From Nitrososphaerota archaeon (GTDB lineage Archaea > Thermoproteota > Nitrososphaeria > Nitrososphaerales > Nitrosopumilaceae), in contig JABDBR010000005.1 in the NCBI GenBank assembly GCA_013288545.1, positions 1 to 32,000 of the forward strand: a DNA stretch of 32,000 nucleotides, in the 5' to 3' direction. Position 1 is the first letter of the stretch. Every line of letters starts with the position of its first letter. The notes under the pieces are model-generated. The model had not been told where the DNA came from, searched no databases, and saw only the letters and a list, made by a program, of their open reading frames with translations. Shown piece by piece: positions 4,222-26,391 of the stretch. The position numbers and the translations under genes are program-made.

Positions 4222-5550
4222 CTATTTAGGAATTGAGAAATAAAATGCAGTGCCTTCCCCTTCTTTGCTTTCAAACCAAATTTTTCCACCCAGATTTTCA
4301 ATGATTCCCTTACAAATTACCAACCCAAATCCACTTCCCCCGTATTTTCTCTTAAAAGAGATGTCCACCTGATAGAACTTTTTGAAGACAGAGTCTTTTC
4401 TTTTTTCCAAGATGCCAATACCATTATCTTTTACAGAAAACAAGATAGAATCTCCCTCTTCCTTGGCTATAATCTCAATTTTTCCCCCAGTTGTAGGCAC
4501 GAAATCAACTGCGTTTTGTATCAAATTGTAAAAAACATCGTTGAGCCTAGTTTTGTCACTAGTTATTGATTTTTTTGTACTAGTCAAGTTTACAAACTCT
4601 ATCTTCTTGTCTCCCATCATGAACATGCATGATCCCACCACCTCATTCATGAGACTGTCAACATTGAATTTTTCCTTCTTGAATTCCATTGTATTGCTGT
4701 TGAGTTTTTGCACATCAATGATGTCACGCATTAATTGTTCCAATTTTGCTGCATTGTCATAGATTTCATTTACTGCCTCAGATTGTTTTTCAGTCAAACT
4801 TCCAAGTGAATTATCACTTAGAGTTTTGGCATATTTTTTTATTGGCGCTATAGGGATTTGGCATTCTTTTGCAACCATCATGTAAAATTCTTCCTTTGTG
4901 GCATCCATCTTTTTTAGTTCTTCAAGCTGTATCCTTTGTCTTTCATGATCTCCCAAGACACTGTGTGCTTTGTAAATTTCAGACATGTCCCGTATTGCAG
5001 TGTTGCTTCCGATTAATTTGCCCTTGTCATCGTAGATATTGTTTGCACTGATTAATCCAGGAAAAACTGTTCCATCTTTTCTTTTGAACCATATCTCGAT
5101 ATCCTCTACTCTGCCCGATTTTTTCCATATTTCAAAGGTTTTGTGCATATTATCTATACTTCTTTCCGCAGTATGATCAAACAAAGACTTGCCAAGAACA
5201 TCTTCTTTTGAATAACCAAAATTTTTGACATATGCTTGATTACATTCCAATATTATTCCATTAGTGTTTACTGTTCTTTGTAGAACAGGCGAGTTTTCAT
5301 AGATATTTCTATATTTTATTGGATCAGTTTTGGATTCAGTTCTTTGTGATTCTACCACATACTTTGGGGGTGAAATAGAATTTTGTTTTCTATTGCTCAA
5401 CCATACAATAATGCCTCCACTTGCAGCACAAACTACTCCAAGAAAAAACACTTGGCTTGAGAAAGGTTCATGCACATCTAATCCATAGACAGCAATTAAA
5501 AGTCCAAAAATGCCTATCATCAGCCCCCCAATAGGACTAAAATTAGTCAT
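4222..5550 (-). CDS. membrane-anchored PAS sensor histidine-kinase-like protein (2 TM + PAS + DHp-like + HATPase_c) lacking the H-box histidine
   Basis: Two N-terminal hydrophobic helices are followed by a PAS-like region (NSPVLQRTVNTNGIILECNQAYVKNFGYSKEDVLGKSLFD). The ATPase boxes are N (YNLIQNAVDF), G1 (VKDNGIGI), F (FKKFYQ) and G2 (GGSGFGL). The H-box reads FYMMVAKECQIPIAPI versus the consensus F...vSHELRTPL. Confidence 0.8.
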   Translation of the reverse strand: MTNFSPIGGLMIGIFGLLIAVYGLDVHEPFSSQVFFLGVVCAASGGIIVWLSNRKQNSISPPKYVVESQRTESKTDPIKYRNIYENSPVLQRTVNTNGIILECNQAYVKNFGYSKEDVLGKSLFDHTAERSIDNMHKTFEIWKKSGRVEDIEIWFKRKDGTVFPGLISANNIYDDKGKLIGSNTAIRDMSEIYKAHSVLGDHERQRIQLEELKKMDATKEEFYMMVAKECQIPIAPIKKYAKTLSDNSLGSLTEKQSEAVNEIYDNAAKLEQLMRDIIDVQKLNSNTMEFKKEKFNVDSLMNEVVGSCMFMMGDKKIEFVNLTSTKKSITSDKTRLNDVFYNLIQNAVDFVPTTGGKIEIIAKEEGDSILFSVKDNGIGILEKRKDSVFKKFYQVDISFKRKYGGSGFGLVICKGIIENLGGKIWFESKEGEGTAFYFSIPK

Positions 5551-5720: not shown

Positions 5721-6275
5721 CTAGTCTATTTCCAACAGAGAAATTATCATATCAAGTAACTCCTGGATTCTTTTCTTTATTCCTTCAAGAACCTGCTTGA
5801 TTTCATTTCCTGAGATCCTTGCTTCATGAATTTGCAAACTTTTAGAGACTTGATCCATGCCATGCTCTGTAATGAATTTGTTGAATTTATCTAGAAACTT
5901 GCTTTCAACAAGTATCTGACTTGCAGTCTCCAGATCCCGGACTGGCTGATATACAGTAGACTTGCCAAATAGGTCCATCATGTCATGAGGTAGACTGATC
6001 ATGTTACCATAAAGATCGTAAAACTTCCAAGCAGTCTTTCTGTATGGTGGGAGGTTTTGATAGAGTTCATCCCTTGTTTTGTATCGTACCAAATAGCCAT
6101 TAATCTCAAGGTCAAGCCATGCATTTCCATCAGATATTCCAATCATTTTGCAGGCATCCTTGCAGGTTTCCAATATGTCATGCAATGATCTTGTCTCTTC
6201 CAAGAGTTCAACACTTACATTTTTGGCCATTTGTAGAATTTTTCCTTTCTCACTTGAATTCAATACAATCAGCAT
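5721..6275 (-). CDS. AbiTii-like domain protein (putative abortive-infection/defence-associated)
   Basis: LHDILETCKDACKMIG...NAWLDLEINGY...LPPYRK matches my recollection of the AbiTii domain core (W..EL.GY......P.YR). This was not computed. TATA-like ATAAGATA lies about 23 nt upstream of ATG 6275. An alternative ATG is at 6230. Confidence 0.5.
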   Translation of the reverse strand: MLIVLNSSEKGKILQMAKNVSVELLEETRSLHDILETCKDACKMIGISDGNAWLDLEINGYLVRYKTRDELYQNLPPYRKTAWKFYDLYGNMISLPHDMMDLFGKSTVYQPVRDLETASQILVESKFLDKFNKFITEHGMDQVSKSLQIHEARISGNEIKQVLEGIKKRIQELLDMIISLLEID

Positions 6276-6330: not shown

Positions 6331-7197
6331 CTAGTAGTTTTTAATCAGCAGTTCAGTGTGTCCAGTTCTCTTTTGTGATACAGAATTGATGAATCTATTT
6401 GCGTTTATCTCAATTATTCCATCTGAAAACTCTTTGAAGAGTTCAACTATTTCACCAGATTTAGAATTTGACAGTAATACCTTGACGCCTTTTTTATCAA
6501 GTGCTTTGAACTTGGCATAGAGCCTTTCTTGGTCATTAAAATCAAAATCACTATCAGTATAACTTGTAAAGCTAGCAGTTGAGCTAACTGGCTGATATGG
6601 AGGATCCAAGTAAACAAAATCTCCATGTCCAACACCTTTTAGAGCATCTTCAAAATCCTGGCATTTTATCGAGATGTCTTTTGATTGCAACACCTTACTT
6701 ACTTCAAAGAGATTTTCCTTGTTTACAATGTTTGGGTTTACATATCTTCCAACAGGGACATTGAATTTTCCTTTGCTGTTTACACGGTATAATCCATTAA
6801 AGCATGTCTTATTGAGAAAGATCAATCTTGAAACTTTATCAATTTCATTTTTAGGATTAGTTTCTCGTATCTTGTAATAGTAAGTATCATGGTTTTTGGA
6901 ATAGTTTTCAGCATGGTTTTCAAGCGATGAAACAAGTTCCTTTACGTTATCTCTAATTGTGACATATGACAATACCAGATCAGAATTAAGGTCAGAGATA
7001 TGCCATCTTGTTTTTCTTTCTTTAGATACAAGAGAGAAAAATACCGCACCGCCACCTAGAAACGGTTCAAAATATCTTTCAAATTTACTAGGAATGTGAT
7101 TTGTAATTACAGGTAAGAGTTGTCTTTTACCTCCCGCCCATTTTACAAACGGTTTTGGTGCAACAGAAATTAATTGGTATTCTTGTTTCAATACCAA
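6331..7197 (-). CDS. dam: DNA adenine methyltransferase (Dam/alpha-class N6-MTase)
   Basis: PFVKWAGGKRQLLP is a Dam N-terminal signature. FEPFLGGGAVFF is the FxGxG SAM motif. FVYLDPPYQP is the DPPY catalytic motif. There is no in-frame ATG near the N-terminus, so the start is TTG at 7197. Confidence 0.9.
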   Translation of the reverse strand: MVLKQEYQLISVAPKPFVKWAGGKRQLLPVITNHIPSKFERYFEPFLGGGAVFFSLVSKERKTRWHISDLNSDLVLSYVTIRDNVKELVSSLENHAENYSKNHDTYYYKIRETNPKNEIDKVSRLIFLNKTCFNGLYRVNSKGKFNVPVGRYVNPNIVNKENLFEVSKVLQSKDISIKCQDFEDALKGVGHGDFVYLDPPYQPVSSTASFTSYTDSDFDFNDQERLYAKFKALDKKGVKVLLSNSKSGEIVELFKEFSDGIIEINANRFINSVSQKRTGHTELLIKNY

Positions 7198-7328: not shown

Positions 7329-7979
7329 TTAGTCCCACTTAGACCAGGCTGCCATCCATCTGTATGTCCATGTTGTTAATTTGCAACCCAATGCAGTCAT
7401 TGTTACTGTCAAAACTGCACTAGCGCCTGCACCTAACGCGACGGGACTATCATAGAACTTGCCTACTTGGGGTTCTATTGGAGTCATGTATGGAGGCAAT
7501 GTGGTTCTTGGGTATTTGAAAGCAGTCTCAAGAGGATCATCTATTGTGATTAGATTGATCATGTTGAACAACGACATAGACATTCCACAGAGTACACCGC
7601 CTATTAGGATCAAAGAGTGTTTGTTTCTCTTTGTTGCCCAATATGCCAAATCCATCAGTATTGCCGATGGAATCCACATTGGTACCACGATGAAACTGTA
7701 CGGATATCCTAAGGAGAACCACGCACCTTTTGCAATCCACGTATACACTGTCATTATTAGTGCATAGTATGTTGCTGTTCCTGGAACGCCAGTGAACGTA
7801 AGGTAGTATGCTGCACCGACTGCGAGCATCAATGATTGTGATAGAGTAAATATCACATAAGATGTCCACATCCAGTCAGTATAGAAGATGTAGTCTCCTG
7901 CGTTGATTGTCAACAAGGTCGAGTTGACTGCTACCACTACTATGAATAAGTAGTGAGTACATCGTCTTAGCCAGACCAT
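7329..7979 (-). CDS. amoA: archaeal ammonia monooxygenase subunit A
   Basis: MVWLRRCTHYLFIVVVAVNSTLLTINAGDYIFYTDW...TWTYRWMAAWSKWD is the canonical 216-aa thaumarchaeal AmoA. The track ORF (to 8048) adds 23 codons that contain the promoter. Confidence 0.98.
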   Translation of the reverse strand: MVWLRRCTHYLFIVVVAVNSTLLTINAGDYIFYTDWMWTSYVIFTLSQSLMLAVGAAYYLTFTGVPGTATYYALIMTVYTWIAKGAWFSLGYPYSFIVVPMWIPSAILMDLAYWATKRNKHSLILIGGVLCGMSMSLFNMINLITIDDPLETAFKYPRTTLPPYMTPIEPQVGKFYDSPVALGAGASAVLTVTMTALGCKLTTWTYRWMAAWSKWD

Positions 7980-8000
7980 TGGATTGTATGCAGGAAGTGA

Positions 8001-8016
8001 TGTATATAAAATTTTA
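8001..8016 (-). promoter_or_regulatory. amoA TATA box / promoter (leaderless spacing)
   Basis: The minus strand reads AAAATTTTATATACA. The core TTTTATATA (plus-strand 8003-8011) ends 23 nt before ATG 7979. The same spacing is seen for amt, the Cas4-like gene and PII. Confidence 0.55.
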
Positions 8017-8101
8017 TGACATGCGAGATCAGGCAGAAAATAAACCAAGTTGAGATAACTCTAATGAAGAATAATAAAAGAAAAGATGAAAAGGAATTTT
8101 C

Positions 8102-8464
8102 CTATCCGAAGAAGACACAATCAGTCACAAGTGTTGCGATAGCAACTGCTGCGATCACACCAGCTATAAGACCATTGTATGTCTTTGCTTTTGATGTACC
8201 CTCGGTCACTACTTTGACACAAAATAGGTACCCAATAGCTTCTATGATTGTAAGTACAGTTAACGCAAAGTGTGCGCTTGGCGGTGGATATGCCCATGGA
8301 TAATATACGCATGCAACGGCAACTCCTCCCCATGTTCCTGCCCAGAGTGCAACGAATGCACCAGTGATGAGTCCAACCATATCTTCGACACGTCGGCCTA
8401 TCATCTTACTGACGTCGGAACTGGAAGCTCCGCCACCTGTACCGAATCCTTTTGGTAAGGTCAT
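8102..8464 (-). CDS. amoX: AmoX, small membrane protein of the archaeal amo cluster
   Basis: Encoded between amoA and amoC on the same strand, as in group I.1a AOA. The 120-aa protein has hydrophobic helices (GLITGAFVALWAGTWGGVAVACVYY; LIAGVIAAVAIATLVTDCVFF). Its own TATA-like GATTTAAAAG lies about 20 nt upstream. Confidence 0.85.
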   Translation of the reverse strand: MTLPKGFGTGGGASSSDVSKMIGRRVEDMVGLITGAFVALWAGTWGGVAVACVYYPWAYPPPSAHFALTVLTIIEAIGYLFCVKVVTEGTSKAKTYNGLIAGVIAAVAIATLVTDCVFFG

Positions 8465-8568: not shown

Positions 8569-9132
8569 TTATGGGATTGATCTACTGTACAATTTGCCTT
8601 CTAGAGCCATCTTGTACATTTCTGCAACATATGGGTTCTCACCTGGTGTTTCTGCTCCAAGTTCGACGAGTCGTGCGTATACTCTTACTACATAGGCAAG
8701 TGCGCCCATGAAAGCAACGACGACACCCATGTTAAACATCCAGTGGTTTGGAACTGCGAAGATCTCCTCTACATACCAGAAGTGCCACATCTCATTGACA
8801 CCTATTGTGAACATGGTTGCCAAGTAACCAAGGATGGTCATCTTGAGACCGGTGTTCATTGAGTTGTTTGGACCTCTCAGAATTGGTACCTTTCTGTCAT
8901 AAACAGCTACCATTCCCCATCCTAATGGAAGAGCAATGAAATGGCTGTATAACCACCAGTGTGCTGGTGTGAAGGCACTATCTCTGATTGATGTCTGGTG
9001 TAAAGATCCGTCTACGAAGTTATCGACCTCTACTGATGCAGCGATTGATCCCAATGCGATGATGATAAGCCAGATCTTCTTCAGTCTCTGGATTTCAACT
9101 TCTTTTGGAATTAGTGCTGGCATTTGTGCCAT
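8569..9132 (-). CDS. amoC: archaeal ammonia monooxygenase subunit C
   Basis: MAQMPALIPKEVEIQRLKKIW...HWWLYSHF...EMWHFWYVEEIF... is typical of thaumarchaeal AmoC (187 aa). Confidence 0.97.
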   Translation of the reverse strand: MAQMPALIPKEVEIQRLKKIWLIIIALGSIAASVEVDNFVDGSLHQTSIRDSAFTPAHWWLYSHFIALPLGWGMVAVYDRKVPILRGPNNSMNTGLKMTILGYLATMFTIGVNEMWHFWYVEEIFAVPNHWMFNMGVVVAFMGALAYVVRVYARLVELGAETPGENPYVAEMYKMALEGKLYSRSIP

Positions 9133-9387: not shown

Positions 9388-9954
9388 ATGGTCGATAAGA
9401 AGTTTATTGTAGCTGCAATAGGTGTGATAGTAGCACTTGGAGCAGTTGGACCATCATTAGCACAAATGTTCCAACATGCTGAGGCACATGGTGTCCAGGC
9501 ACAGTTACAGAGTCGTTTCGTAAGAATAGATGGCGAGACATGGTCAAAACAATCTGTTCATACAGGAGACACTTTGACAGTATCTGGTAAATTTGTAAGT
9601 CTTGTAAACAGAGACTTGCGAGGCTGGTACACCGTATATGGTGACTCATCCAACGCTGGTAACAGATGGGAAATTGTAGCAAGAGATCCACCTGGTAACG
9701 TAATTACGATACCAGCAAACGCAGTGGTTCCATACAAGTTAACCATTAAGGCACTTGAACCAGCAGTATATCACATGCATACGCAGCTTAACGTAGCAAG
9801 CATAGGTCCAGGTCTTGGTCCAGGACAAACAGTCGTGGTAACAGGCGATCCAATCGTAAAACCAATCCCATACACAAACGTAGCCTATCAATCGATAGTA
9901 ATTGCAGTGGGATATGTGGTTACTTTCGCAACAAGACCTTGGCAAGTGATTTAA
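9388..9954 (+). CDS. amoB: archaeal ammonia monooxygenase subunit B
   Basis: A signal/TM segment is followed by AHGVQAQLQSRFVRIDGETW... and a C-terminal TM ending RPWQVI, as in short archaeal AmoB (188 aa). The gene is divergent from amoC. Confidence 0.95.
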   Translation: MVDKKFIVAAIGVIVALGAVGPSLAQMFQHAEAHGVQAQLQSRFVRIDGETWSKQSVHTGDTLTVSGKFVSLVNRDLRGWYTVYGDSSNAGNRWEIVARDPPGNVITIPANAVVPYKLTIKALEPAVYHMHTQLNVASIGPGLGPGQTVVVTGDPIVKPIPYTNVAYQSIVIAVGYVVTFATRPWQVI

Positions 9955-11893: not shown

Positions 11894-13399
11894 TTACTCT
11901 GCAAATCCAGAGTATGCGTGTTCGCCTACTTGAGATATGTCCAATCCTATTTCTTCTTCTTTTGGTGTAACTCTAACACCACCTGGCCAAATTGCATCTT
12001 GGATTCTCCAAATGATGTAAGTTAGGCCAAATGACCAAGCTGCACCGAATCCTGCCCCCATGCTGTTAATTACAAACTGCATTGGGTTTCCAAAGAAGAG
12101 ACCGTTGTGTGCATATGGATTGATTCTGACTTCACTGAACGCACCTGTAAGCAATGCACCTACAACACCACCCATTCCGTGTACACCCCAAGTATCCAAG
12201 GCATCATCTATTCTTGCCCTGTTCTTGATCAGTACACAGTAGAAGCATACTGTTGCACATGCAAATCCTACTATTATTGATGCCCATGTTCCAATGAAAC
12301 CAGAGGCTGGCGTGATTGCTACAAGTCCAGCAACAGCTCCGTTGACTGCACCGATGGCGCTAGTCTTTCCTGTATGTGCCCAGCTTAAGAACATCCACCA
12401 TATTGCTGCAACCGCAGTTGCCACGTTGGTGTTCTGGAATGCTTGTGTTTCTAGGAAACCAGCAAAGCCTGCACTACCAGGGTTGAAACCAAACCATCCG
12501 AACCAAAGTAATGATGCACCCAAGATTATAAGCGGAATTGAGTGCGGTTCAAATGGTGCCTTACCATATCCTATTCTTCTTCCCAAGAACATTGCGGTAG
12601 CTAAACCAGCAAATCCTGAGGTGATGTGAATGACTGTTCCTCCCGCAAAGTCTTCTGCACCCATCTTGGCTAACCAACCAAGTGCGGTACCTTGACTTCC
12701 AAGAGACCAGTTGGCATGTCCAGCAACATCATAGATGAATGTAGTCCATAATACGATGTGTATCAGGAATGCGCTCATCTTTACCCTGTCAGCATAACCA
12801 GCAATGGCTAGTGACGGAGTGATGGCAGCGAACATGAGCTGGAACATCACATAGGCTAAGTGAGGAATAGTTGGAGCGTATACATCGGCTGGTGCATTGT
12901 GCGATACATTATTCAAGCCTACCCAGTCAAGGTTTCCAATAAATCCAACAGGATCAGCAGATGGACCAAACATTATCGAGTATCCAAAGACAACCCATTG
13001 GACACTGACAATTGCATAGACCATGAATGCCTGTAACATTACGGTTAGAGAGTGCTTTCGTCTTGTAAGACCTCCATACAAGAATCCCACACCACCAGGA
13101 GTCATTATCATGACGAAGACTGCTGCTGCGTACATGAAGGTTGTATCTCCTGTGTCTATACATGGGGCATTACTTCCACCGAATGTTCCGTTACCTGGTG
13201 GAGTCATCGGCTGAGCACAGTGAATCTCATGTGTCTTGCTAGGATCTGCAAGAGCTCCTAACGGACCAAACTGAGCGTGTGCGTCCTGTATTGCCGTGAA
13301 TCCGGATAACCCGACTATTAAGCCTGCGAGCACAAAAACTACCGGCCATTTGTGTTTTGTTACTATCTGCATTGGCGATTTAGAAATTGTCTCCAGCAT
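11894..13399 (-). CDS. amt: ammonium transporter (Amt/MEP family)
   Basis: Family hallmarks are present: DTGDTTFMYAAAVFVMIMTPGG, AEDFAGGTVIHITSGFAGL, LLWFGWFGFNPGS, WGVHGMGGVVGALLTG. The start is set at Met13 of the track ORF (ATG 13399), because the first 12 codons overlap a TATA box 23 nt upstream of that ATG. Confidence 0.93.
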   Translation of the reverse strand: MLETISKSPMQIVTKHKWPVVFVLAGLIVGLSGFTAIQDAHAQFGPLGALADPSKTHEIHCAQPMTPPGNGTFGGSNAPCIDTGDTTFMYAAAVFVMIMTPGGVGFLYGGLTRRKHSLTVMLQAFMVYAIVSVQWVVFGYSIMFGPSADPVGFIGNLDWVGLNNVSHNAPADVYAPTIPHLAYVMFQLMFAAITPSLAIAGYADRVKMSAFLIHIVLWTTFIYDVAGHANWSLGSQGTALGWLAKMGAEDFAGGTVIHITSGFAGLATAMFLGRRIGYGKAPFEPHSIPLIILGASLLWFGWFGFNPGSAGFAGFLETQAFQNTNVATAVAAIWWMFLSWAHTGKTSAIGAVNGAVAGLVAITPASGFIGTWASIIVGFACATVCFYCVLIKNRARIDDALDTWGVHGMGGVVGALLTGAFSEVRINPYAHNGLFFGNPMQFVINSMGAGFGAAWSFGLTYIIWRIQDAIWPGGVRVTPKEEEIGLDISQVGEHAYSGFAE

Positions 13400-13418
13400 C
13401 TTTCGATAGAGATGTTTC

Positions 13419-13467
13419 TCATCTATAAAAGGCATTTTATCCTAAAATGTTTTTTTTATGATATTAT
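13419..13467 (-). promoter_or_regulatory. amt promoter: copy A of a 49-nt repeated promoter/upstream element
   Basis: The plus strand reads TCATCTATAAAAGGCATTTTATCCTAAAATGTTTTTTTTATGATATTAT. On the minus strand TTTTATAG (13423-13430) lies 23 nt from ATG 13399. It is 44/49 identical to 15926-15974. Confidence 0.7.
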
Positions 13468-13562
13468 CGATACATAATATCTGATTTTGTAAAAGTTTAG
13501 TATCATAGAATTAGAAAAAATTCTAAATAAAATTATTATACAACTTACAGACTAGAGCACGC

Positions 13563-13727
13563 ATGACTGAAGCAGGAATAGAAATTTTCATTGCAACAGG
13601 AGTAACTCTTGCAATGACAATAGCAATTTACTTCGGTGAAAGAGCTCACAGGTATAATTTAGCCAAGAAAGGAAAAACTTGGGGAACCTATGGCTTTAGG
13701 TATGAAGGCACCGGTCAACACGCCTAG
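13563..13727 (+). CDS. 54-aa single-TM micro-protein (below ORF-track cutoff)
   Basis: Hand translation gives MTEAGIEIFIATGVTLAMTIAIYFGERAHRYNLAKKGKTWGTYGFRYEGTGQHA*. It has a clean hydrophobic helix then a basic/aromatic tail. No homology support. Confidence 0.35.
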   Translation: MTEAGIEIFIATGVTLAMTIAIYFGERAHRYNLAKKGKTWGTYGFRYEGTGQHA

Positions 13728-13809
13728 AGTAAATCCCTTTTATCATATTTTTGTAATATCATCAGCGATTAGATAGATTGATTTATTCACAACAAATGTT
13801 GGACAAATT

Positions 13810-14301
13810 ATGAGAGAAAATCTGGAAGAAGAAGAACACATCATAGCATCGCTTCCACAGATTTGGGGAATAGCATTAGGGTTAGGAGGATTTTTTCATA
13901 AAAATAAAGAAGGTATTCTTGTTCTTACAAGCAAAAATGTAATTTTTGTTCCACGTTACATTTGGATTACTGCAAAAGAAAAGGAGCGATATTTTGCAGG
14001 TGATAAGGCTGGAATAGAAAAGATGTCAAACTACAATGAATCAGATCTGGATGAAGATTTGACTGAGAATCCAAAATCATGGATAATACATCTAGATTCC
14101 ATAACAGACGTTGGAAGCATAACAACAAGAAAAGTTGATTTCTTGAGGATCACATTTACAGAAAAAGGAAAAGAGAAAAAATATGATTTTGGAATTACCA
14201 AAACTGTAACAAACTACCCATATAGACAGCCTCTAGTTTTCAAAAATTTAGACTGGAGTTTATGGATAGGTTTGATAGTATCAAAACTAAAAAAACCGTA
14301 G
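13810..14301 (+). CDS. hypothetical protein (possibly PH/GRAM-like fold)
   Basis: 163-aa ORF. GILVLTSKNVIFVP...WIIHLDSITDV...FLRITF is reminiscent of bacterial PH-like domains, which is weak evidence. The C-terminus is hydrophobic. Confidence 0.45.
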   Translation: MRENLEEEEHIIASLPQIWGIALGLGGFFHKNKEGILVLTSKNVIFVPRYIWITAKEKERYFAGDKAGIEKMSNYNESDLDEDLTENPKSWIIHLDSITDVGSITTRKVDFLRITFTEKGKEKKYDFGITKTVTNYPYRQPLVFKNLDWSLWIGLIVSKLKKP

Positions 14302-14310
14302 ATTATAGCA

Positions 14311-14781
14311 CTAACTATTACCTTTAGAGCATAGTTTTTCTCGTGCCTGAGAAATAATAAAATCATCATCAATGTCTGTGGTTTTTAAGAATTTCAAATC
14401 AAATACCTTCTTTTTAAATTTGAATATTTCAAGCTCATATTTTTTGTTTTTAGGAGAATAGTTTGCAAGTTGTAATGATGCAGACCCATTGTATTCTTCC
14501 ATAAACTGCTGATAGTGATCTGATATTTTTAGGGATTTTAAAAAGACATTGGATGTCTGCAATATGCGAGATTGGCAATACAGTATGAATTCATAGTTAG
14601 TATCTCCTTCAAAGAATCTCATTTTGATCTCATCGTCTGGCCAGTATTTTATTATCTGATTCCAGGTGTTCACAAGTTTTCTTTTATTATCAAATATCAA
14701 GTAAATAGTAGGACGCACATCAAACACATGATATCCCAGACCTAGAAAATCTTCAAACCAGTCTATTTTAGAATCTACCAT
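14311..14781 (-). CDS. hypothetical protein
   Basis: The ORF in the track starts at TTG 14793. ATG 14781 lies 21 nt after the TATA-like CATTAAATAC. The region is very AT-rich and has no recognisable motifs. Confidence 0.45.
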   Translation of the reverse strand: MVDSKIDWFEDFLGLGYHVFDVRPTIYLIFDNKRKLVNTWNQIIKYWPDDEIKMRFFEGDTNYEFILYCQSRILQTSNVFLKSLKISDHYQQFMEEYNGSASLQLANYSPKNKKYELEIFKFKKKVFDLKFLKTTDIDDDFIISQAREKLCSKGNS

Positions 14782-14852
14782 GTTCAATTCCAAGTATGTA
14801 TTGTATTTAATGATTAGAATGGGAGTAAGAATTTACAATAAGAAAATTTAAG

Positions 14853-15104
14853 ATGTCAAATAGTTCAGAATATTTTGTAATACACATGGGAAATAGAAAG
14901 CGAATCGGCGAGATAATGAAGATGAGTAAAGAAGAATTATACCAATATCTCAGACAGGAAGATGCTGCAATACAATCAACAGATAAAATAGAAATGAAAC
15001 CCTTTGAACATGGCATCAAGATTTTTTACTTCCACAAAGATTCAGAAACTCCCTACAAGACTCGTGTGTATCTAAACCCAGACGAATCAGAATCGTTAAA
15101 ATAA
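14853..15104 (+). CDS. hypothetical protein
   Basis: 83-aa ORF with no recognisable motifs. The start is uncertain. Confidence 0.35.
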   Translation: MSNSSEYFVIHMGNRKRIGEIMKMSKEELYQYLRQEDAAIQSTDKIEMKPFEHGIKIFYFHKDSETPYKTRVYLNPDESESLK

Positions 15105-15156
15105 ATAAAATTACTTTTAGGTAAAATTATAAAATTAAAATGAAAAAAGTGTGTGA

Positions 15157-15906
15157 TTATAGGAAGGGTTTTGCTTTGAGTTCACGCCACTTGCCACGAG
15201 CCCAGAATCCCCATTTCTGTTTGTCTTCATTTGCATAGTAACATTTCTCATTGTGAGGACATTCCATGCATTTTTCAGACGGTTCGATTGCTGGAGCAAT
15301 GTTGTTTGTCAGCAAGGTATTGAGAATTTTAGCTCTACGTTTTGTTTCGTGTAAAAGCTTCTCACTCTTTGGCACATTAAATTCCATTTCGTTTCCTTCT
15401 CTATCGAAGTAGACAATCACTCCTTCAGGTTTGTCAAACATAAACAGATAGGAGTTCAGGTGTATGAAATCTGCCGGATACGGCATTTCAGGTAATTTTT
15501 CTGAACTTCTAAAGAGCATCACTACTTCATCTTCAACTCTGTCAGCTCTACCGACAATCTTTACGTTAGAACCTGCATCAAGTTGACCGTCAATTGGTTT
15601 TTCCATGATGCTAAATGCGCTCTTTTGCATTATCTTTGACACCATCTGCTTGTGATTGCTTTCAGATGGATCCTTTCGATCAAGGTATGCATTTCTTAAA
15701 CATCCGCTTACCTCATCTACAGTGATCTTACCTTCGTCAGCTACTTGTGGATTAATTGCTGCAAAGACTTGCTCAATTACATCGTAAACATCTACTCGTG
15801 GTGGTGCATCAGTTGCTGCACGATAGTTTTCAATTCCTTCCTTAATTTTGTCTTGAACTTTTCCAACGATTTTTGCTTTTTTGTAGCTAGCTTTGGATTC
15901 TGTCAT
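15157..15906 (-). CDS. Cas4/RecB-like PD-(D/E)xK-superfamily protein with 4-Cys Fe-S cluster signature (orphan, no CRISPR)
   Basis: The N-terminal Cys lies in VSGCLRNAYLDRK (Cas4-type C.R..Y). The C-terminus has CMECPHNEKC (C-x2-C-x5-C). The core reads IVGRADRV...VVMLFRSSEK...FIHLNSYLFMF...GVIVYF. The expected ExK and QxxxY motifs are not clearly conserved by eye. Confidence 0.65.
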   Translation of the reverse strand: MTESKASYKKAKIVGKVQDKIKEGIENYRAATDAPPRVDVYDVIEQVFAAINPQVADEGKITVDEVSGCLRNAYLDRKDPSESNHKQMVSKIMQKSAFSIMEKPIDGQLDAGSNVKIVGRADRVEDEVVMLFRSSEKLPEMPYPADFIHLNSYLFMFDKPEGVIVYFDREGNEMEFNVPKSEKLLHETKRRAKILNTLLTNNIAPAIEPSEKCMECPHNEKCYYANEDKQKWGFWARGKWRELKAKPFL

Positions 15907-15925
15907 TCTTTTGAAGAGTGGGATT

Positions 15926-15974
15926 TCATCTATAAAAGGTATTTTATCCTAAAACAATGTTTTTATGATATTAT
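15926..15974 (-). promoter_or_regulatory. promoter of the Cas4-like gene: copy B of the 49-nt repeated promoter/upstream element
   Basis: The plus strand reads TCATCTATAAAAGGTATTTTATCCTAAAACAATGTTTTTATGATATTAT. On the minus strand TTTTATAG (15930-15937) lies 23 nt from ATG 15906, the same offset as copy A. Confidence 0.7.
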
Positions 15975-16037
15975 TCTTTATTTTGTAATATTTTAAGCAA
16001 TGATTTTAATAAAAGCATTTCATATGTGCAATGAATC

Positions 16038-16385
16038 ATGACCCTTAAAAAAATAGAGGCAATATTTCCAAAAGAAAAATTGGATGCGGTCTTCAATGCC
16101 CTAACAGAACTTGACATAAGTGGATTTACGTACATGGATGTCAAGGGCAGAGGTGCTAGACCAAGAGAAATGGTTTCATCAGGCAGAGGAGGACGTATTG
16201 AAGCTACACACAATGTGAATGCACTAGTCTATGTAGTTGTCACTGAGAGTCAGTTATCTAAAGTAATAGATGCAATAACTACTCATGCAGGTACAGGGGC
16301 AGCAGGAGAAGGAAAGATCTTCATCTACAACCTTGATGATGCGGTAGACATAGGAACCAAAAAACGCGGCGAATCCTCACTCTAA
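16038..16385 (+). CDS. nitrogen regulatory protein P-II family
   Basis: KKIEAIFPKEKLDAVFNAL...GFTYMDVKGRG...TGAAGEGKIFIYNLDDAVDIGT follows the GlnB/GlnK fold pattern (compare E. coli KKIDAIIKPFKLDDV...TEVKGFG...TGKIGDGKIFVFDV). TATA TTTAATAAAA (16005-16014) lies 23 nt upstream. Confidence 0.85.
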   Translation: MTLKKIEAIFPKEKLDAVFNALTELDISGFTYMDVKGRGARPREMVSSGRGGRIEATHNVNALVYVVVTESQLSKVIDAITTHAGTGAAGEGKIFIYNLDDAVDIGTKKRGESSL

Positions 16386-16490
16386 ATTTCTTTTACCTAT
16401 TTTACTTTAATTTATAGAAAGACTCCCTGGTACTTTTTTTGGGATAGAAAATATCTTAATCTATATAACTCCAACAAGCACAACAAAATC

Positions 16491-17009
16491 ATGTTCTGGC
16501 CTGGAATGGGAGATCCGACAAAACGTAAAAAAATGCTCAGATTTCTTGCAATTTCAGCAGCTGTTGGAGTAGCAGTAGTTTTGATCAGTACTACAGCAAT
16601 TTCACAGGTCAAAGAACAGGATCCTCTTTATCACAAATGCGTTAATGGTTTGGATATTCAATATCATGTATCTGCTTCACTAGATGTTCAAGTAGATGGT
16701 AAAAAATGGGAAAAACCGATAGATACCACTGTTATTCCAAAAGATTGTGAAAGATCTATGGTTTTTCTAGATGATGGAACTATTCGCGGCGAATGGACAA
16801 AGCAGTACCCATTTGAGGTAGGCCAATTTCTTTGGATGTCAGGCTTTCCGTTGAGAGACATGGATGAAGTTAAATCAAAAATTTATGTAAATGGAGTAGA
16901 ATCTCCTGACTTTATTCATACAATAGTTCAGGATGGAGTACACTACAAGGCAGAGTTTGCCACAAAGAATGCCGGAGCACCAACCTTTACACCACCACCT
17001 AAAAGCTAA
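16491..17009 (+). CDS. membrane-anchored extracytoplasmic protein, unknown function
   Basis: A basic N-terminus plus TM (RKKMLRFLAISAAVGVAVVLIST) is followed by a soluble domain with 2 Cys and a Pro-rich tail. TATA-like ATCTATATAAC lies 21 nt upstream of ATG 16491. Confidence 0.5.
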   Translation: MFWPGMGDPTKRKKMLRFLAISAAVGVAVVLISTTAISQVKEQDPLYHKCVNGLDIQYHVSASLDVQVDGKKWEKPIDTTVIPKDCERSMVFLDDGTIRGEWTKQYPFEVGQFLWMSGFPLRDMDEVKSKIYVNGVESPDFIHTIVQDGVHYKAEFATKNAGAPTFTPPPKS

Positions 17010-17112: not shown

Positions 17113-17394
17113 TTACCAGTATTTACCGTTGTCTGGTATCAGACCAATGCCTTCTCTTTCAAAGTGCTTGTTGAGTTCTGCGACCCATCTTTCTCTTGTG
17201 TCGCCACCAAGACCGTGCACTCTGAGCCAGAATGCAATTACTCCGAGAAGGAATACTGTGAACATGATGGTTGCGAATATGTAGACCATCACATCATAGA
17301 ATAGCGGGTCATAGTTTGGACCTATTTGACCTGCAAAGTTTGACAGCATACCTACGAGCATAGTGAATATCGTGCTCATCATAATTCCAAGCAA
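17113..17394 (-). CDS. small 2-TM membrane protein, unknown function
   Basis: 93-aa protein with two long hydrophobic helices (STIFTMLVGMLSNFAG; VMVYIFATIMFTVFLLGVIAFWL) and a charged C-terminal tail. Confidence 0.5.
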   Translation of the reverse strand: MLGIMMSTIFTMLVGMLSNFAGQIGPNYDPLFYDVMVYIFATIMFTVFLLGVIAFWLRVHGLGGDTRERWVAELNKHFEREGIGLIPDNGKYW

Positions 17395-17477: not shown

Positions 17478-17777
17478 CTAAGCTCTCTTTGCTTTTTCCG
17501 CTTGCTTTGCTCTTACAACAAAAGCAATGAAGATTCCACCGAATATTCCACCTGAGATGATCGATGCACCGAGTACACCGCTTGCATCAAGATATGGAGT
17601 ACCTGAACCTGCGTGCGGATTATTTTGTACTGCCTGTACCTTAGCTCTTGCTAGTGCCAATTCCTGTTCGAGCCCAAGACCACCACCTGGTGTGTACTGA
17701 GCTGCAGCAAATGGAGCAAATGTAGAGGCTACAAATAGAGCCAACAGTGCAGTTCCAACAATTATTGGTGTTTTCAT
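17478..17777 (-). CDS. small secreted/tail-anchored protein (signal peptide + C-terminal TM), unknown function
   Basis: MKTPIIVGTALLALFVASTFAPFAAAQ is a signal peptide. An Ala/Gly-rich segment follows, then the C-terminal TM GGIFGGIFIAFVV and a basic tail. Confidence 0.5.
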   Translation of the reverse strand: MKTPIIVGTALLALFVASTFAPFAAAQYTPGGGLGLEQELALARAKVQAVQNNPHAGSGTPYLDASGVLGASIISGGIFGGIFIAFVVRAKQAEKAKRA

Positions 17778-24007: not shown

Positions 24008-24826
24008 ATGAGACCTGGATCAAATGTGCTTGCAGAGTCATCATTATACATAGACTGGAATAATTCCTTTGAAGTTTTGGATAAGGCGTACGCAGCTAAC
24101 CTATTTGTGCTCGTAATAGGTCCCAAGGGGACAGGTAAGACCACACTAGTAAGAGAATTTGCTACAAAGAGAGGGATTAATCTTGAATCAATTAATTTCA
24201 GTTTAAGAACACGTGAAAGTCACCTAGTAGGTGCAAAGACATTAGAGAATGGTGCAATCGGATTCGAACAAGGAATTCTAGTCAAATCCATGAAAGAAGG
24301 AAATATGCTGTATCTTGATGAGATAAACTCTGCAGAAGCAGATGTACTTCTTCGTCTTGATGAGGCATTAGATGATAGAAGGCAGATCGTTCTAAAAGAA
24401 TCAGGCGGAGAGATGATCAAAGCCGCAAAAGGATGGTTTGTTGTTGCTACAATTAATCCGTTATCACATGTCGGTACAAAAGAGCTACCGCCTCAATTGT
24501 TAAGCAGATTTCCAATAAGATTAAGACTAGATTACCCACCAGAAGACATTGAATTTCAGATAGTCAAACAGTATTCATCTGGATCCCATGAAAAAGAGAT
24601 CATACAAGGAATAAAGTTGGCAAATATTCTACGACAAGCAGCTGCAGTAGAAGAGCTATACTATTCTCCAAGTTTGCGTGAAACAATAGCATTTGCAAAG
24701 ATACTTGATTCTGGTATGAAGACAAGACAAGCTGCAGAGATAGTATTTGCTAATGTATACCTACAATGGGGTAGTGTTGAATTCCAGAAAGTAAATGACA
24801 TCATAACATCGATGTTTGGTAATTAA
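24008..24826 (+). CDS. MoxR-class AAA+ ATPase (AAA_5; CbbQ/NorQ/CobS-like)
   Basis: Walker A is VLVIGPKGTGKTTL and Walker B is LYLDEIN. ...VVATINP...LPPQLLSRF is typical of the MoxR/AAA_5 family. Confidence 0.85.
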   Translation: MRPGSNVLAESSLYIDWNNSFEVLDKAYAANLFVLVIGPKGTGKTTLVREFATKRGINLESINFSLRTRESHLVGAKTLENGAIGFEQGILVKSMKEGNMLYLDEINSAEADVLLRLDEALDDRRQIVLKESGGEMIKAAKGWFVVATINPLSHVGTKELPPQLLSRFPIRLRLDYPPEDIEFQIVKQYSSGSHEKEIIQGIKLANILRQAAAVEELYYSPSLRETIAFAKILDSGMKTRQAAEIVFANVYLQWGSVEFQKVNDIITSMFGN

Positions 24827-26391
24827 TGCAATCATTACATCTCAGAAACGATACATTACTTGAGATAGCAACATTTCTTGTCAGAAGATGGTCTGAAAAA
24901 GGGTCTATCACTATCAGCATATCTGATCAAAAGGAAGTACAGACCAAATTACGAGAAAACAAAGTCTTGATGTTTCCATTAGAGCGATATCAAGGATCAG
25001 ATTTTCAAAAATACAGACAGTTCAGAATAGCTTTATGGTATGAAGCCATGCGGATTAGATATTCAAATAAAATTCTCAGCAATGATCATGCCTTTGGCTT
25101 TATTCTCAATACTCTTGAGACAAGAAGAATTGAAACTATAGCAAGAACGGTTTGGCAAGGAATGGACGGTGAGATCATCTTCAGGTATGGTGTTTCTTGG
25201 CTTTACAGGCCATTGTTGAACACACTATATGGAAACGCCAGAATTGTAGAAGGTTTTTCTCAATATTTTCTATTAGGAGATATCAAAGGTGAACTCTCAC
25301 CTAGCGCATTTGAAAAAGTCCAAAAAGCAAGCAAGTTAGCCTTGGAAATAGTCAAAGAATCAATTGAAAAAAAACATGAAACAGATTGGCTTGAAAAGAA
25401 GATACCTGAAATAATCAAAATTCTAGAAATTGACCCACTTTTAACTATCCCAATATCAATACCCAAAATCAGTTCAGGGATGGCACTTTCAGACCAAGAA
25501 TTTGTAAAGACCCTGAACAAGATTGCAAAATATCGCGAAAGTGACTTTGGTGAGTTGGATCCCAAAAGAATTTCTGAAGGTAAAGAGGTCTTAGAAGAAT
25601 TCAAAGTTTTACTTGAAGAAGCAAAAAGGACAGAGAATAAGGGTCTAAACAATGAAGTAATAGGGATAAGCATCCCCAATGCAACAAATGTAGACGAGAC
25701 AAAGATTATTGATACAGATCTTATAAACCACCTTAAAGCAAAATTCAAGGAATGGAAATCAGGCTGGAAAGAAGAACATGTTTTTTCAGGAGACGAATTT
25801 GATGAAGAAGCATACATGGAAGGTCACAAGCCTTTTCTATCAGATAGAAAAATTGCAATCAAGACCAAAATTGTGATACTTCTTGATCATTCATCCAGTA
25901 TAGCAAATCAGGAAATACAATACAAAAAGGCCACACTTGCTTTATGTGAAGTTTTAGAATATTTGAAAGTAAAATTTTCTGTATTTGCATTTAACACCGA
26001 ACAAAAACAAGTTACTTGTTGGTTAGTAAAGCCAGAAAATTTGAAATGGAATAATATTTCTGCCAAGAGACTTGCACAGATAAAAGCAAACGGCAGTACT
26101 CCATTAGCAGAAGTTTACAACATGTTGTTACCATCTCTTCGATCAAAAAAACCAGACATATTTTTGACATTAACAGATGGTGAACCATCAGATCCTGATG
26201 CAGTTCGTTCTATAATGAGAGATTTCAAATCAATTGGTGTAAAGATGGTCGCAATAGGATTTGGGCCAGACACGGGAGATGCCATAGTAATTGCAAACAA
26301 CCTCAGAAGATTAGGTTATGAGCGTACTCTTGCAGTAAGCAGATTAAGCGATATCCCAAAAAGAGTTTTGAACGTCCTAGGAACTAGTTAA
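24826..26391 (+). CDS. von Willebrand factor A (VWA) domain protein, NorD/CbbO/CobT-like partner of the MoxR ATPase
   Basis: The C-terminal VWA has a complete MIDAS: VILLDHSSSI (DxSxS), NGSTP, LTDGEPSD. The long helical N-terminal region resembles NorD/CobT proteins. The start overlaps the ATPase stop (TAATG). Confidence 0.8.
   Translation: MQSLHLRNDTLLEIATFLVRRWSEKGSITISISDQKEVQTKLRENKVLMFPLERYQGSDFQKYRQFRIALWYEAMRIRYSNKILSNDHAFGFILNTLETRRIETIARTVWQGMDGEIIFRYGVSWLYRPLLNTLYGNARIVEGFSQYFLLGDIKGELSPSAFEKVQKASKLALEIVKESIEKKHETDWLEKKIPEIIKILEIDPLLTIPISIPKISSGMALSDQEFVKTLNKIAKYRESDFGELDPKRISEGKEVLEEFKVLLEEAKRTENKGLNNEVIGISIPNATNVDETKIIDTDLINHLKAKFKEWKSGWKEEHVFSGDEFDEEAYMEGHKPFLSDRKIAIKTKIVILLDHSSSIANQEIQYKKATLALCEVLEYLKVKFSVFAFNTEQKQVTCWLVKPENLKWNNISAKRLAQIKANGSTPLAEVYNMLLPSLRSKKPDIFLTLTDGEPSDPDAVRSIMRDFKSIGVKMVAIGFGPDTGDAIVIANNLRRLGYERTLAVSRLSDIPKRVLNVLGTS

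Follow-up and report, generated by a model that had tools for sequence, protein, structure and literature searches.

In a 32,000-nucleotide (nt) stretch of DNA from a Nitrososphaerota archaeon of the family Nitrosopumilaceae (NCBI GenBank assembly GCA_013288545.1, contig JABDBR010000005.1, positions 1 to 32,000 of the forward strand; hereafter the window), two copies of a 49-nt direct repeat carry the promoters of two unrelated genes: amt2, encoding an ammonium transporter, and a gene for a Cas4-like iron-sulfur (Fe-S) protein. We consider it reasonably probable that the repeat is a shared promoter cassette placing amt2, the Cas4-like gene and probably also s54, a gene for a protein of 54 amino acids (aa), under one control, with its upstream blocks contacted by a specific factor just upstream of the B recognition element (BRE) and TATA box. 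Judged from the sequence, co-regulation of amt2 and the Cas4-like gene is the most likely reading of this arrangement.

Copy A (13419–13467, minus strand) serves amt2 and copy B (15926–15974, minus strand) the Cas4-like gene, the latter copy lying within the 131-nt intergenic region common to the Cas4-like gene and a divergent PII gene. As a first-pass annotation of the window had stated, and as we read from the sequence for both copies, they share orientation and each stops 19 nt short of a minus-strand start codon (ATG at 13399 for amt; at 15906 for the open reading frame (ORF) of 249 aa). Recomputing their ungapped identity gave the same value as before, 44/49, and a repeat search extended the two copies to 60 nt at 83% identity. 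Among two million random 49-nt pairs drawn from the window, the best reached 29/49. Even with up to three mismatches tolerated, the window holds exactly two occurrences of the near-identical 29-nt core (TCATCTATAAAAGGYATTTTATCCTAAAA), where none is expected (100 shuffles). An exact-match scan of 185,579 species genomes (one genome per species) found the core at 27 loci, nearly all in Nitrosotalea or Nitrosopumilales, plus one metagenome-assembled genome titled Thermoplasmata. No genome, including the complete N. devanaterra chromosome, held more than two exact copies, always before amt and before the Cas4-like gene, and for exact copies the genome-wide check proposed in the first-pass annotation returned nothing beyond these two promoters. 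A dispersed repeat, or a promoter element resembling a miniature inverted-repeat transposable element, was rejected on the same counts, at most two exact core copies per genome and both in this locus. A protein-based metagenome scan added 80 loci with 65–100% identity to the Cas4-like protein.

Each copy, taken in the direction of its gene, comprises a distal box (ATATCATAAAA), six variable nucleotides, a proximal block (TTTTAGGAT), the block AAAATRCC, the TATA box (TTTTATAG), 22 more nt and the ATG. In copy A these elements lie, all on the minus strand, at 13454–13464 (distal box), 13448–13453 (spacer, AAAACA), 13439–13447 (proximal block), 13431–13438 (AAAATGCC) and 13423–13430 (TATA box); in copy B, on the same strand, they lie at 15961–15971, 15955–15960 (ACATTG), 15946–15954, 15938–15945 (AAAATACC) and 15930–15937. 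The proximal block is conserved, the spacer is constant in length, and the distal box contains a position-fixed TATCA[TC]A. From its position alone we infer that AAAATRCC is the BRE. TTTATAG starts 30 nt before the amt ATG, and the TATA box of copy B likewise stands 30 nt before the Cas4-like ATG. In clade N (Nitrosotalea), to which the window belongs, this distance is 30 nt in 18/18 genomes for the Cas4-like gene and in 17/18 for amt; for both genes it is 30 nt in the sister clade M and 29 nt in the sister clade K (74–79% and 71–74% identity to the Cas4-like protein, respectively). Further genes of the window have TATA-like boxes at comparable distances from their starts, and the blocks of the module were not found at other promoters of the window, including those of amoA, amoB, amoC and amoX. 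The TATA geometry, together with the leaderless class that GeneMarkS-2 inferred for 11/11 Thaumarchaeota analysed (PMC6028130), suggests that transcription starts at the ATG or a few nt from it and yields leaderless mRNA.

The description of the repeat in the first-pass annotation as promoter-bearing and selectively conserved upstream of the TATA box was borne out at orthologous promoters: the motif is present at amt promoters of many species, the opposite of the absence that the annotation had named as grounds for refutation, and likewise at Cas4-like promoters. Its statement that the TATA-to-ATG spacers are unrelated has to be corrected. They are the diverged remains of one duplicated segment; in sister lineages the copies are still 96–99% identical through the first 3–5 codons. 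The weaker similarity that it noted further upstream (ATTTTGTAA) exists (13484–13492 and 15980–15988), but it is offset by 11 nt from the register of the module and is loosely conserved, and we found no evidence that it is a member of the repeat.

Both copies are under purifying selection in the genus of the window. Constraint was measured on loci picked through the protein and not through the motif, hence without ascertainment on the motif, and clade N contributed nine unique amt promoters and 13 unique Cas4-like promoters. From TTTTAGGAT through TTTTATAG (proximal block, BRE and TATA box), 25/25 sites were invariant in both copies, against 50% of the 4-fold degenerate sites of amt (P = 3e-8) and 65% of those of the Cas4-like gene (P = 2.5e-5). 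The distal box had a nucleotide diversity (pi) of 0.06–0.09. The 6-nt spacer was more variable than 4-fold sites, with pi of 0.39 against 0.19 in copy A (six variants among nine genomes) and 0.52 against 0.115 in copy B (nine variants among 13 genomes), yet its length never changed. Invariant blocks around a variable spacer of fixed length point to the footprint of discrete contacts rather than to general AT-richness. The module was also retained at the amt promoters of loci that had been found through copy B alone.

In the sister clades the two promoters evolve in concert. Copies A and B resembled each other more within genomes than between genomes, both in clade M (p = 0.001) and in clade K (module, p = 0.02; TATA-to-ATG segment, p = 0.0005); the same comparison found no concerted evolution in the window's clade (p = 0.6). 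Two alleles exchange places between the genes in clade K, CTAGGATAAAAT and TTACGATAAAAC. The first stands at both genes in loci L083, L084, L086/87 and L094, the second stands at both in L099, and L069, L070, L073 and L092 have one allele per gene. The copies form direct repeats of 85 nt at 96% identity in L087 and of 79 nt at 97% in L099; in L077 (88 nt) and L100 (132 nt), where the genes are divergent, they are inverted and 99% identical. These long copies run into the first 3–5 codons, giving common N-termini (MSG, MSSGV or MVRP), and the unit is therefore the complete expression cassette. At least five separate homogenisation events are implied, and repeated homogenisation by gene conversion shows that the two promoters are functionally interchangeable. 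As in repeats maintained by gene conversion, such as rRNA operons and duplicated genes, copies within a genome are more alike than orthologues and alleles swap in both directions; unlike in those repeats, the unit here is a cassette of 79–132 nt, promoter plus start codon, before two non-homologous genes, in direct or inverted orientation. The first-pass annotation had been silent on this concerted evolution and on the distal box at the promoter of the 54-aa gene.

That gene, s54 (13563–13727, plus strand), is divergent from amt, is conserved across lineages by tblastn, and encodes a protein whose hydrophobic stretch we read as a putative membrane helix. Its promoter carries a TATCATA box (13501–13507, plus strand), with the TATA core (TTATTATA, 13533–13540) 35 nt downstream of it, the same box-to-TATA distance as in copies A and B, and is thus a third promoter with the distal box, here without the dyad readable in the two copies. 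Among unique unbiased promoter sequences, 75% of those of amt had TATCA[TC]A at -63/-64 relative to the ATG (one at -68), 90% of the Cas4-like ones had it within -72 to -52, mostly at -63 to -65, and 60% of those of s54 at -61/-62. The corresponding frequency at that position was 0–5% in the promoters of 11 other neighbouring gene families. The s54 box varies in clade K, where it reads ATCATAAAA, ATCCTAAAA or ATCTTAAAA. On this pattern s54 probably belongs to the promoter class as its third member. Its promoter also has a perfect 7-nt inverted repeat (TAGAATT-AGAAAA-AATTCTA, 13506–13525, plus strand) between the TATCATA box and the TATA core, in a region that is conserved in the genus and unlike the dyad of copies A and B. 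In a distant lineage (L030/L031, 3482–3580), a two-copy tandem repeat of 50 nt (89% matches) lies upstream of amt, each unit with an ATAATA(C/T)AACATAAAAAAT box resembling the distal box.

We propose that the two repeats are copies of one archaeal expression cassette, which begins some 68 nt before the start codon and runs up to it, with amt2 driven by one copy and the Cas4-like gene by the other. In this cassette AAAATRCC would occupy the BRE, the proximal element (TTTTAnGATAAAAT) about -48 to -35 and the distal box about -65 to -55, with the 6-nt spacer between the two, and the placement of the TATA box would set the leaderless start. The proximal and distal blocks would be contacted by a sequence-specific factor, which may be a dimeric transcription factor sitting just upstream of the BRE and TATA box, a typical position for an archaeal activator, or one of the many paralogues of transcription factor B (TFB) reading an extended BRE. 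The amt2 gene, the Cas4-like gene and probably the gene for the 54-aa membrane protein would then be transcribed as one regulon. With a PII gene as the neighbour of copy B, which is context only, nitrogen status is a plausible signal. The cassette would have originated in an ancient duplication that took in the first codons; it is now maintained by purifying selection in the window's genus and also homogenised by repeated gene conversion in sister lineages.

Two dyads can be read in the module, either ATCnTAAAA-N6-TTTTAnGAT, whose right arm is the proximal block, or a 13-bp TTTTA-nGA-TAAAA made of the proximal block and the next bases. Between flanks that stay fixed, the base after TTTTA takes all four values across clades, other lineages having C, A or T instead of G. 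Allowing up to one mismatch, the dyad is confined to the amt/s54 and Cas4-like/PII intergenic regions within the 835 kb searched. Several points weigh against the proposed regulon. Two alternative dyads are readable and give more than one candidate binding site. The dyad arms match at 8/9 positions, yet 13–16% of shuffles equal that (single copy, p = 0.13–0.16, AT-rich composition), and since the dyad is not significant by shuffling we relied on the evolutionary footprints instead; the variability of the spacer and of the n position lends the dyad indirect support. Pfam and NCBIfam searches of all substantial ORFs of the window found no DNA-binding domain in them or in the gene cluster. Even with no shared regulator, gene conversion by itself could maintain the likeness of neighbouring promoters in clades M and K. 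One lineage (L081, L089–L098) has the box at amt and a different Cas4-like promoter, so that sharing is not universal, and the counts across loci are not phylogenetically independent. Rfam gave no matches over 13000–16500, and single-strand folding was weak in both copies (z of -2.2 and -0.9), with no structural element. A bacterial promoter and terminator scan gave counts equal to those of shuffles and was uninformative for an archaeon.

Both copies predate the radiation of the genus Nitrosotalea. The gene order of the locus is conA-like, amt, s54, h163, h160, h83, Cas4-like, PII, h172, h93, h99 and S15; synteny of the entire block holds in every Nitrosotalea locus covering it, with about 2.5 kb between the copies throughout the genus, and the order is kept in clades M and K. 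More distant lineages have the genes in another order but still linked: amt lies 0.4–3.2 kb from the Cas4-like gene in 21/21 loci with at least 4.5 kb of flank on both sides (45–98% protein identity). At the most distant homologue found (46% identity; L028, 6001–9212), the Cas4-like, ConA-like and amt genes are lined up head-to-tail on a single strand, separated by short gaps, in an operon-like manner. The amt of L028 is called as three ORFs, from frameshifts or assembly errors. In clades M and K (e.g., L050, 6783–7523), one more gene, absent from the window, lies between the Cas4-like gene and h83; its hydrophobic product of 246 aa is probably a membrane protein.

This history bears on the second idea of the first-pass annotation, in which an insertion left the repeats behind as att-like scars; equally, they might be target-site scars on either side of a 2.5-kb element. 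A pair of direct repeats around small ORFs without database matches would suit such an origin, but we regard it as very improbable. The four intervening genes form a conserved syntenic block in every Nitrosotalea locus covering them, as well as in over 60 metagenome loci, and distant ammonia oxidizers still have them linked to amt and the Cas4-like gene. No genome has an empty site, and the spacing within the genus is constant. The window has no integrase and its tRNAs are about 9 kb away. Moreover, both copies stand at a fixed promoter distance from start codons and are inverted in L077 and L100. The conserved synteny and linkage of the block refute the insertion-scar idea. Chance similarity of AT-rich intergenic DNA, for which the composition of the window might speak (35–40% GC, with very AT-rich intergenic regions), has a negligible probability beside the two cores observed against none expected, the 44/49 identity against 29/49 for the best random pair, and the conservation of both copies across species.

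A harder competitor is a strong constitutive core promoter with A/T-rich flanks that was copied once before a second gene and holds no specific operator; its conservation would mirror the strength of the core promoter, and the likeness of the copies would come from gene conversion between close repeats. We think this rather unlikely. It would fit a gene such as amt2, which in these archaea ranks with the most strongly transcribed genes (PMC4836417; 10.1101/175141), as well as the gene conversion demonstrated in clades M and K and the lack of significance of the dyad on its own. It does not account for invariance that reaches 17 nt beyond the TATA box on its upstream side and returns in the distal box 35 nt upstream, across a fast-evolving spacer of fixed length, nor for clade N, where both copies are invariant without conversion; other highly expressed genes of the window (amoA, amoB, amoC and amoX) also do without the blocks. 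Alternatively, AAAATRCC and TTTTAnGATAAAAT together might be an extended BRE read by a particular TFB paralogue, in the manner of an alternative sigma factor, with no classical transcription factor site. The invariant block does abut the TATA box on its upstream side, and ammonia-oxidizing archaea encode unusually many TFB paralogues. However, the distal box (-65 to -55), the most widely conserved element across lineages, lies farther out than TFB is expected to make contact, and no TFB gene was found in the window. We therefore hold this alternative to be improbable.

Archaeal upstream activating sites commonly lie just upstream of the BRE and TATA box, as in the case of Ptr2 (Methanocaldococcus), TFB-RF1 (Pyrococcus) and regulators of the Lrp/AsnC type, the last with AT-centred dyads of 13–15 bp. 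The cassette resembles these sites in its conserved blocks directly upstream of the BRE and TATA box, its possible AT-rich dyad and its non-conserved centre or spacer of fixed length. It differs from them in that no Lrp-type gene was found nearby, the dyad is statistically weak, and a second box stands 35 nt from the TATA box and is common to a third promoter without the dyad. The sequence of the module matches no consensus known to us. The NrpR operators of methanogens (GGAA-N6-TTCC, at nif and glnA promoters) have a palindrome with a 6-nt spacer, which the cassette may share, and likewise stand at nitrogen-acquisition promoters of an archaeon. NrpR operators lie at or downstream of the TATA box and act in repression, whereas the present element is upstream of the TATA box and has a different sequence. 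GGAA-N6-TTCC, the NrpR operator, is absent from both promoters (13400–13562 and 15907–16037, with up to one mismatch allowed). We know of no report of NrpR in Nitrososphaerota.

In the literature searched, we found no prior description of the motif, of the linkage between the Cas4-like gene and amt, or of conversion between their promoters, and, as far as we know, no pair of transcription factor and operator described in ammonia-oxidizing archaea. A study of the ammonia monooxygenase subunits did not find a common promoter motif of the amo genes (PMC10030591). The cassette would thus be a regulon-type promoter module, unusual in evolving concertedly before two unrelated genes, and apparently undescribed. 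It is a sharply delimited and strongly constrained cis-element before the ammonium transporter gene that an acid-soil nitrifier transcribes most highly, and could be used as bait to find its regulator. Through it, a widespread but uncharacterised Cas4-like protein becomes connected with ammonium uptake, as does a membrane protein of 54 aa, and it offers a clean natural case of a promoter-only unit in concerted evolution before two unrelated genes.

The product of the gene behind copy B (15157–15906, minus strand; 249 aa) was called nuclease-like in the first-pass annotation, and both profile and structure comparisons support a Cas4 fold of the PD-(D/E)XK class. The family profile matched the Cas4 structure 4IC1 (E = 3.8e-5), and the AlphaFold 2 (AF2) model, with a predicted local distance difference test score (pLDDT) of 70–90 in its core, had 4ic1 as its top Foldseek match (E = 6e-9). 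No Pfam family matched, and the score against TIGR00372 was below the cut-off. Four invariant cysteines, C69, C213, C216 and C222, correspond to the four ligands of the Fe-S cluster. The Asp of motif II is conserved (Glu in two sequences), as is QxxxY. In 17/17 aligned sequences ExK is replaced by [LIM]-F-[RK], the Glu by Leu, Ile or Met and the Lys mostly by Arg. Given the loss of the ExK glutamate, nuclease activity is doubtful for this predicted Cas4 fold with Fe-S ligands, and the family may be a catalytically altered or inactive nuclease. Compared with Cas4 nucleases (SSO0001, PDB 4IC1), the protein shares the PD-(D/E)XK fold, the four cysteine ligands, the motif II Asp and QxxxY, but it lacks the ExK glutamate and a CRISPR/cas context and is linked to amt. 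No CRISPR or cas genes were present in the window or related loci, where amt is the constant neighbour. One tentative scenario, which we hold to be less likely than not, is that the Cas4-like protein, after losing its nuclease glutamate, was recruited to ammonium acquisition, for instance as a regulator, sensor or partner of Amt2, together with the small membrane proteins of the block. It would then be needed in step with Amt2, and for that reason one cassette, read by a thaumarchaeal regulator, would be kept at both genes and re-copied by gene conversion when its copies drift.

The amt2 gene (11894–13399, minus strand; Pfam Ammonium_transp, E = 4e-106) encodes a high-affinity-type transporter with an N-terminal signal or transmembrane segment and is 98% identical to the N. 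devanaterra gene (NDEV_1784; L010). The name Amt2 follows the signal-peptide-bearing, high-affinity type that is transcribed more than 10-fold above amt1 (PMC4836417). A mechanical ORF list places the amt start at 13435, inside the TATA box. A translation start at 13399 is supported instead: downstream of this ATG the differences between species are synonymous, and in L007 the ATG that follows is not conserved. The PII (GlnB/K-like) gene (16038–16385, plus strand; Pfam P-II, E = 2e-19) is divergent from copy B, as the first-pass annotation had noted, and this arrangement of PII and the Cas4-like gene is kept in clades N, M and K.

Between the copies lie three further conserved genes with no assigned function and no Pfam or NCBIfam matches, h163 (13810–14301, plus strand), h160 (14311–14793, minus strand) and h83 (14853–15104, plus strand). 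The true start of h83 is probably the internal Met at 14886, giving 72 aa, since the first 11 residues are not conserved. Its AF2 model is confident (pLDDT of 76) and shows two helices, a three-stranded sheet and a C-terminal helix; it matched no fold in the PDB and no DNA-binding fold.

The window also contains amoA (7329–8048, minus strand), amoX (8102–8464, minus strand), amoC (8569–9132, minus strand) and amoB (9388–9954, plus strand). Two genes for small membrane proteins, h93 (17113–17394, minus strand) and h99 (17478–17777, minus strand), follow eleven genes after amoB. In Nitrosotalea, amoABCX and amoYZ are 11–12 genes apart (PMC10030591), and by position and size h93 and h99 are probably amoY and amoZ. 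The amt2/Cas4-like/PII block is thus located between amoABCX and a putative amoYZ cluster.

Adjoining amoA are genes for a D12-class N6-adenine DNA methyltransferase (6331–7197; Pfam E = 2e-64) and an AbiTii-like protein (5721–6275; E = 9e-10), a pair that may be a small defence or restriction island beside core ammonia-oxidation genes. Two other features of the window are unconnected to the repeat: a gene for a PAS-domain histidine kinase (4222–5550, minus strand) that adjoins tRNA-Thr, and, downstream, a gene pair for a MoxR-type AAA ATPase and a VWA protein (24008–26391, plus strand).

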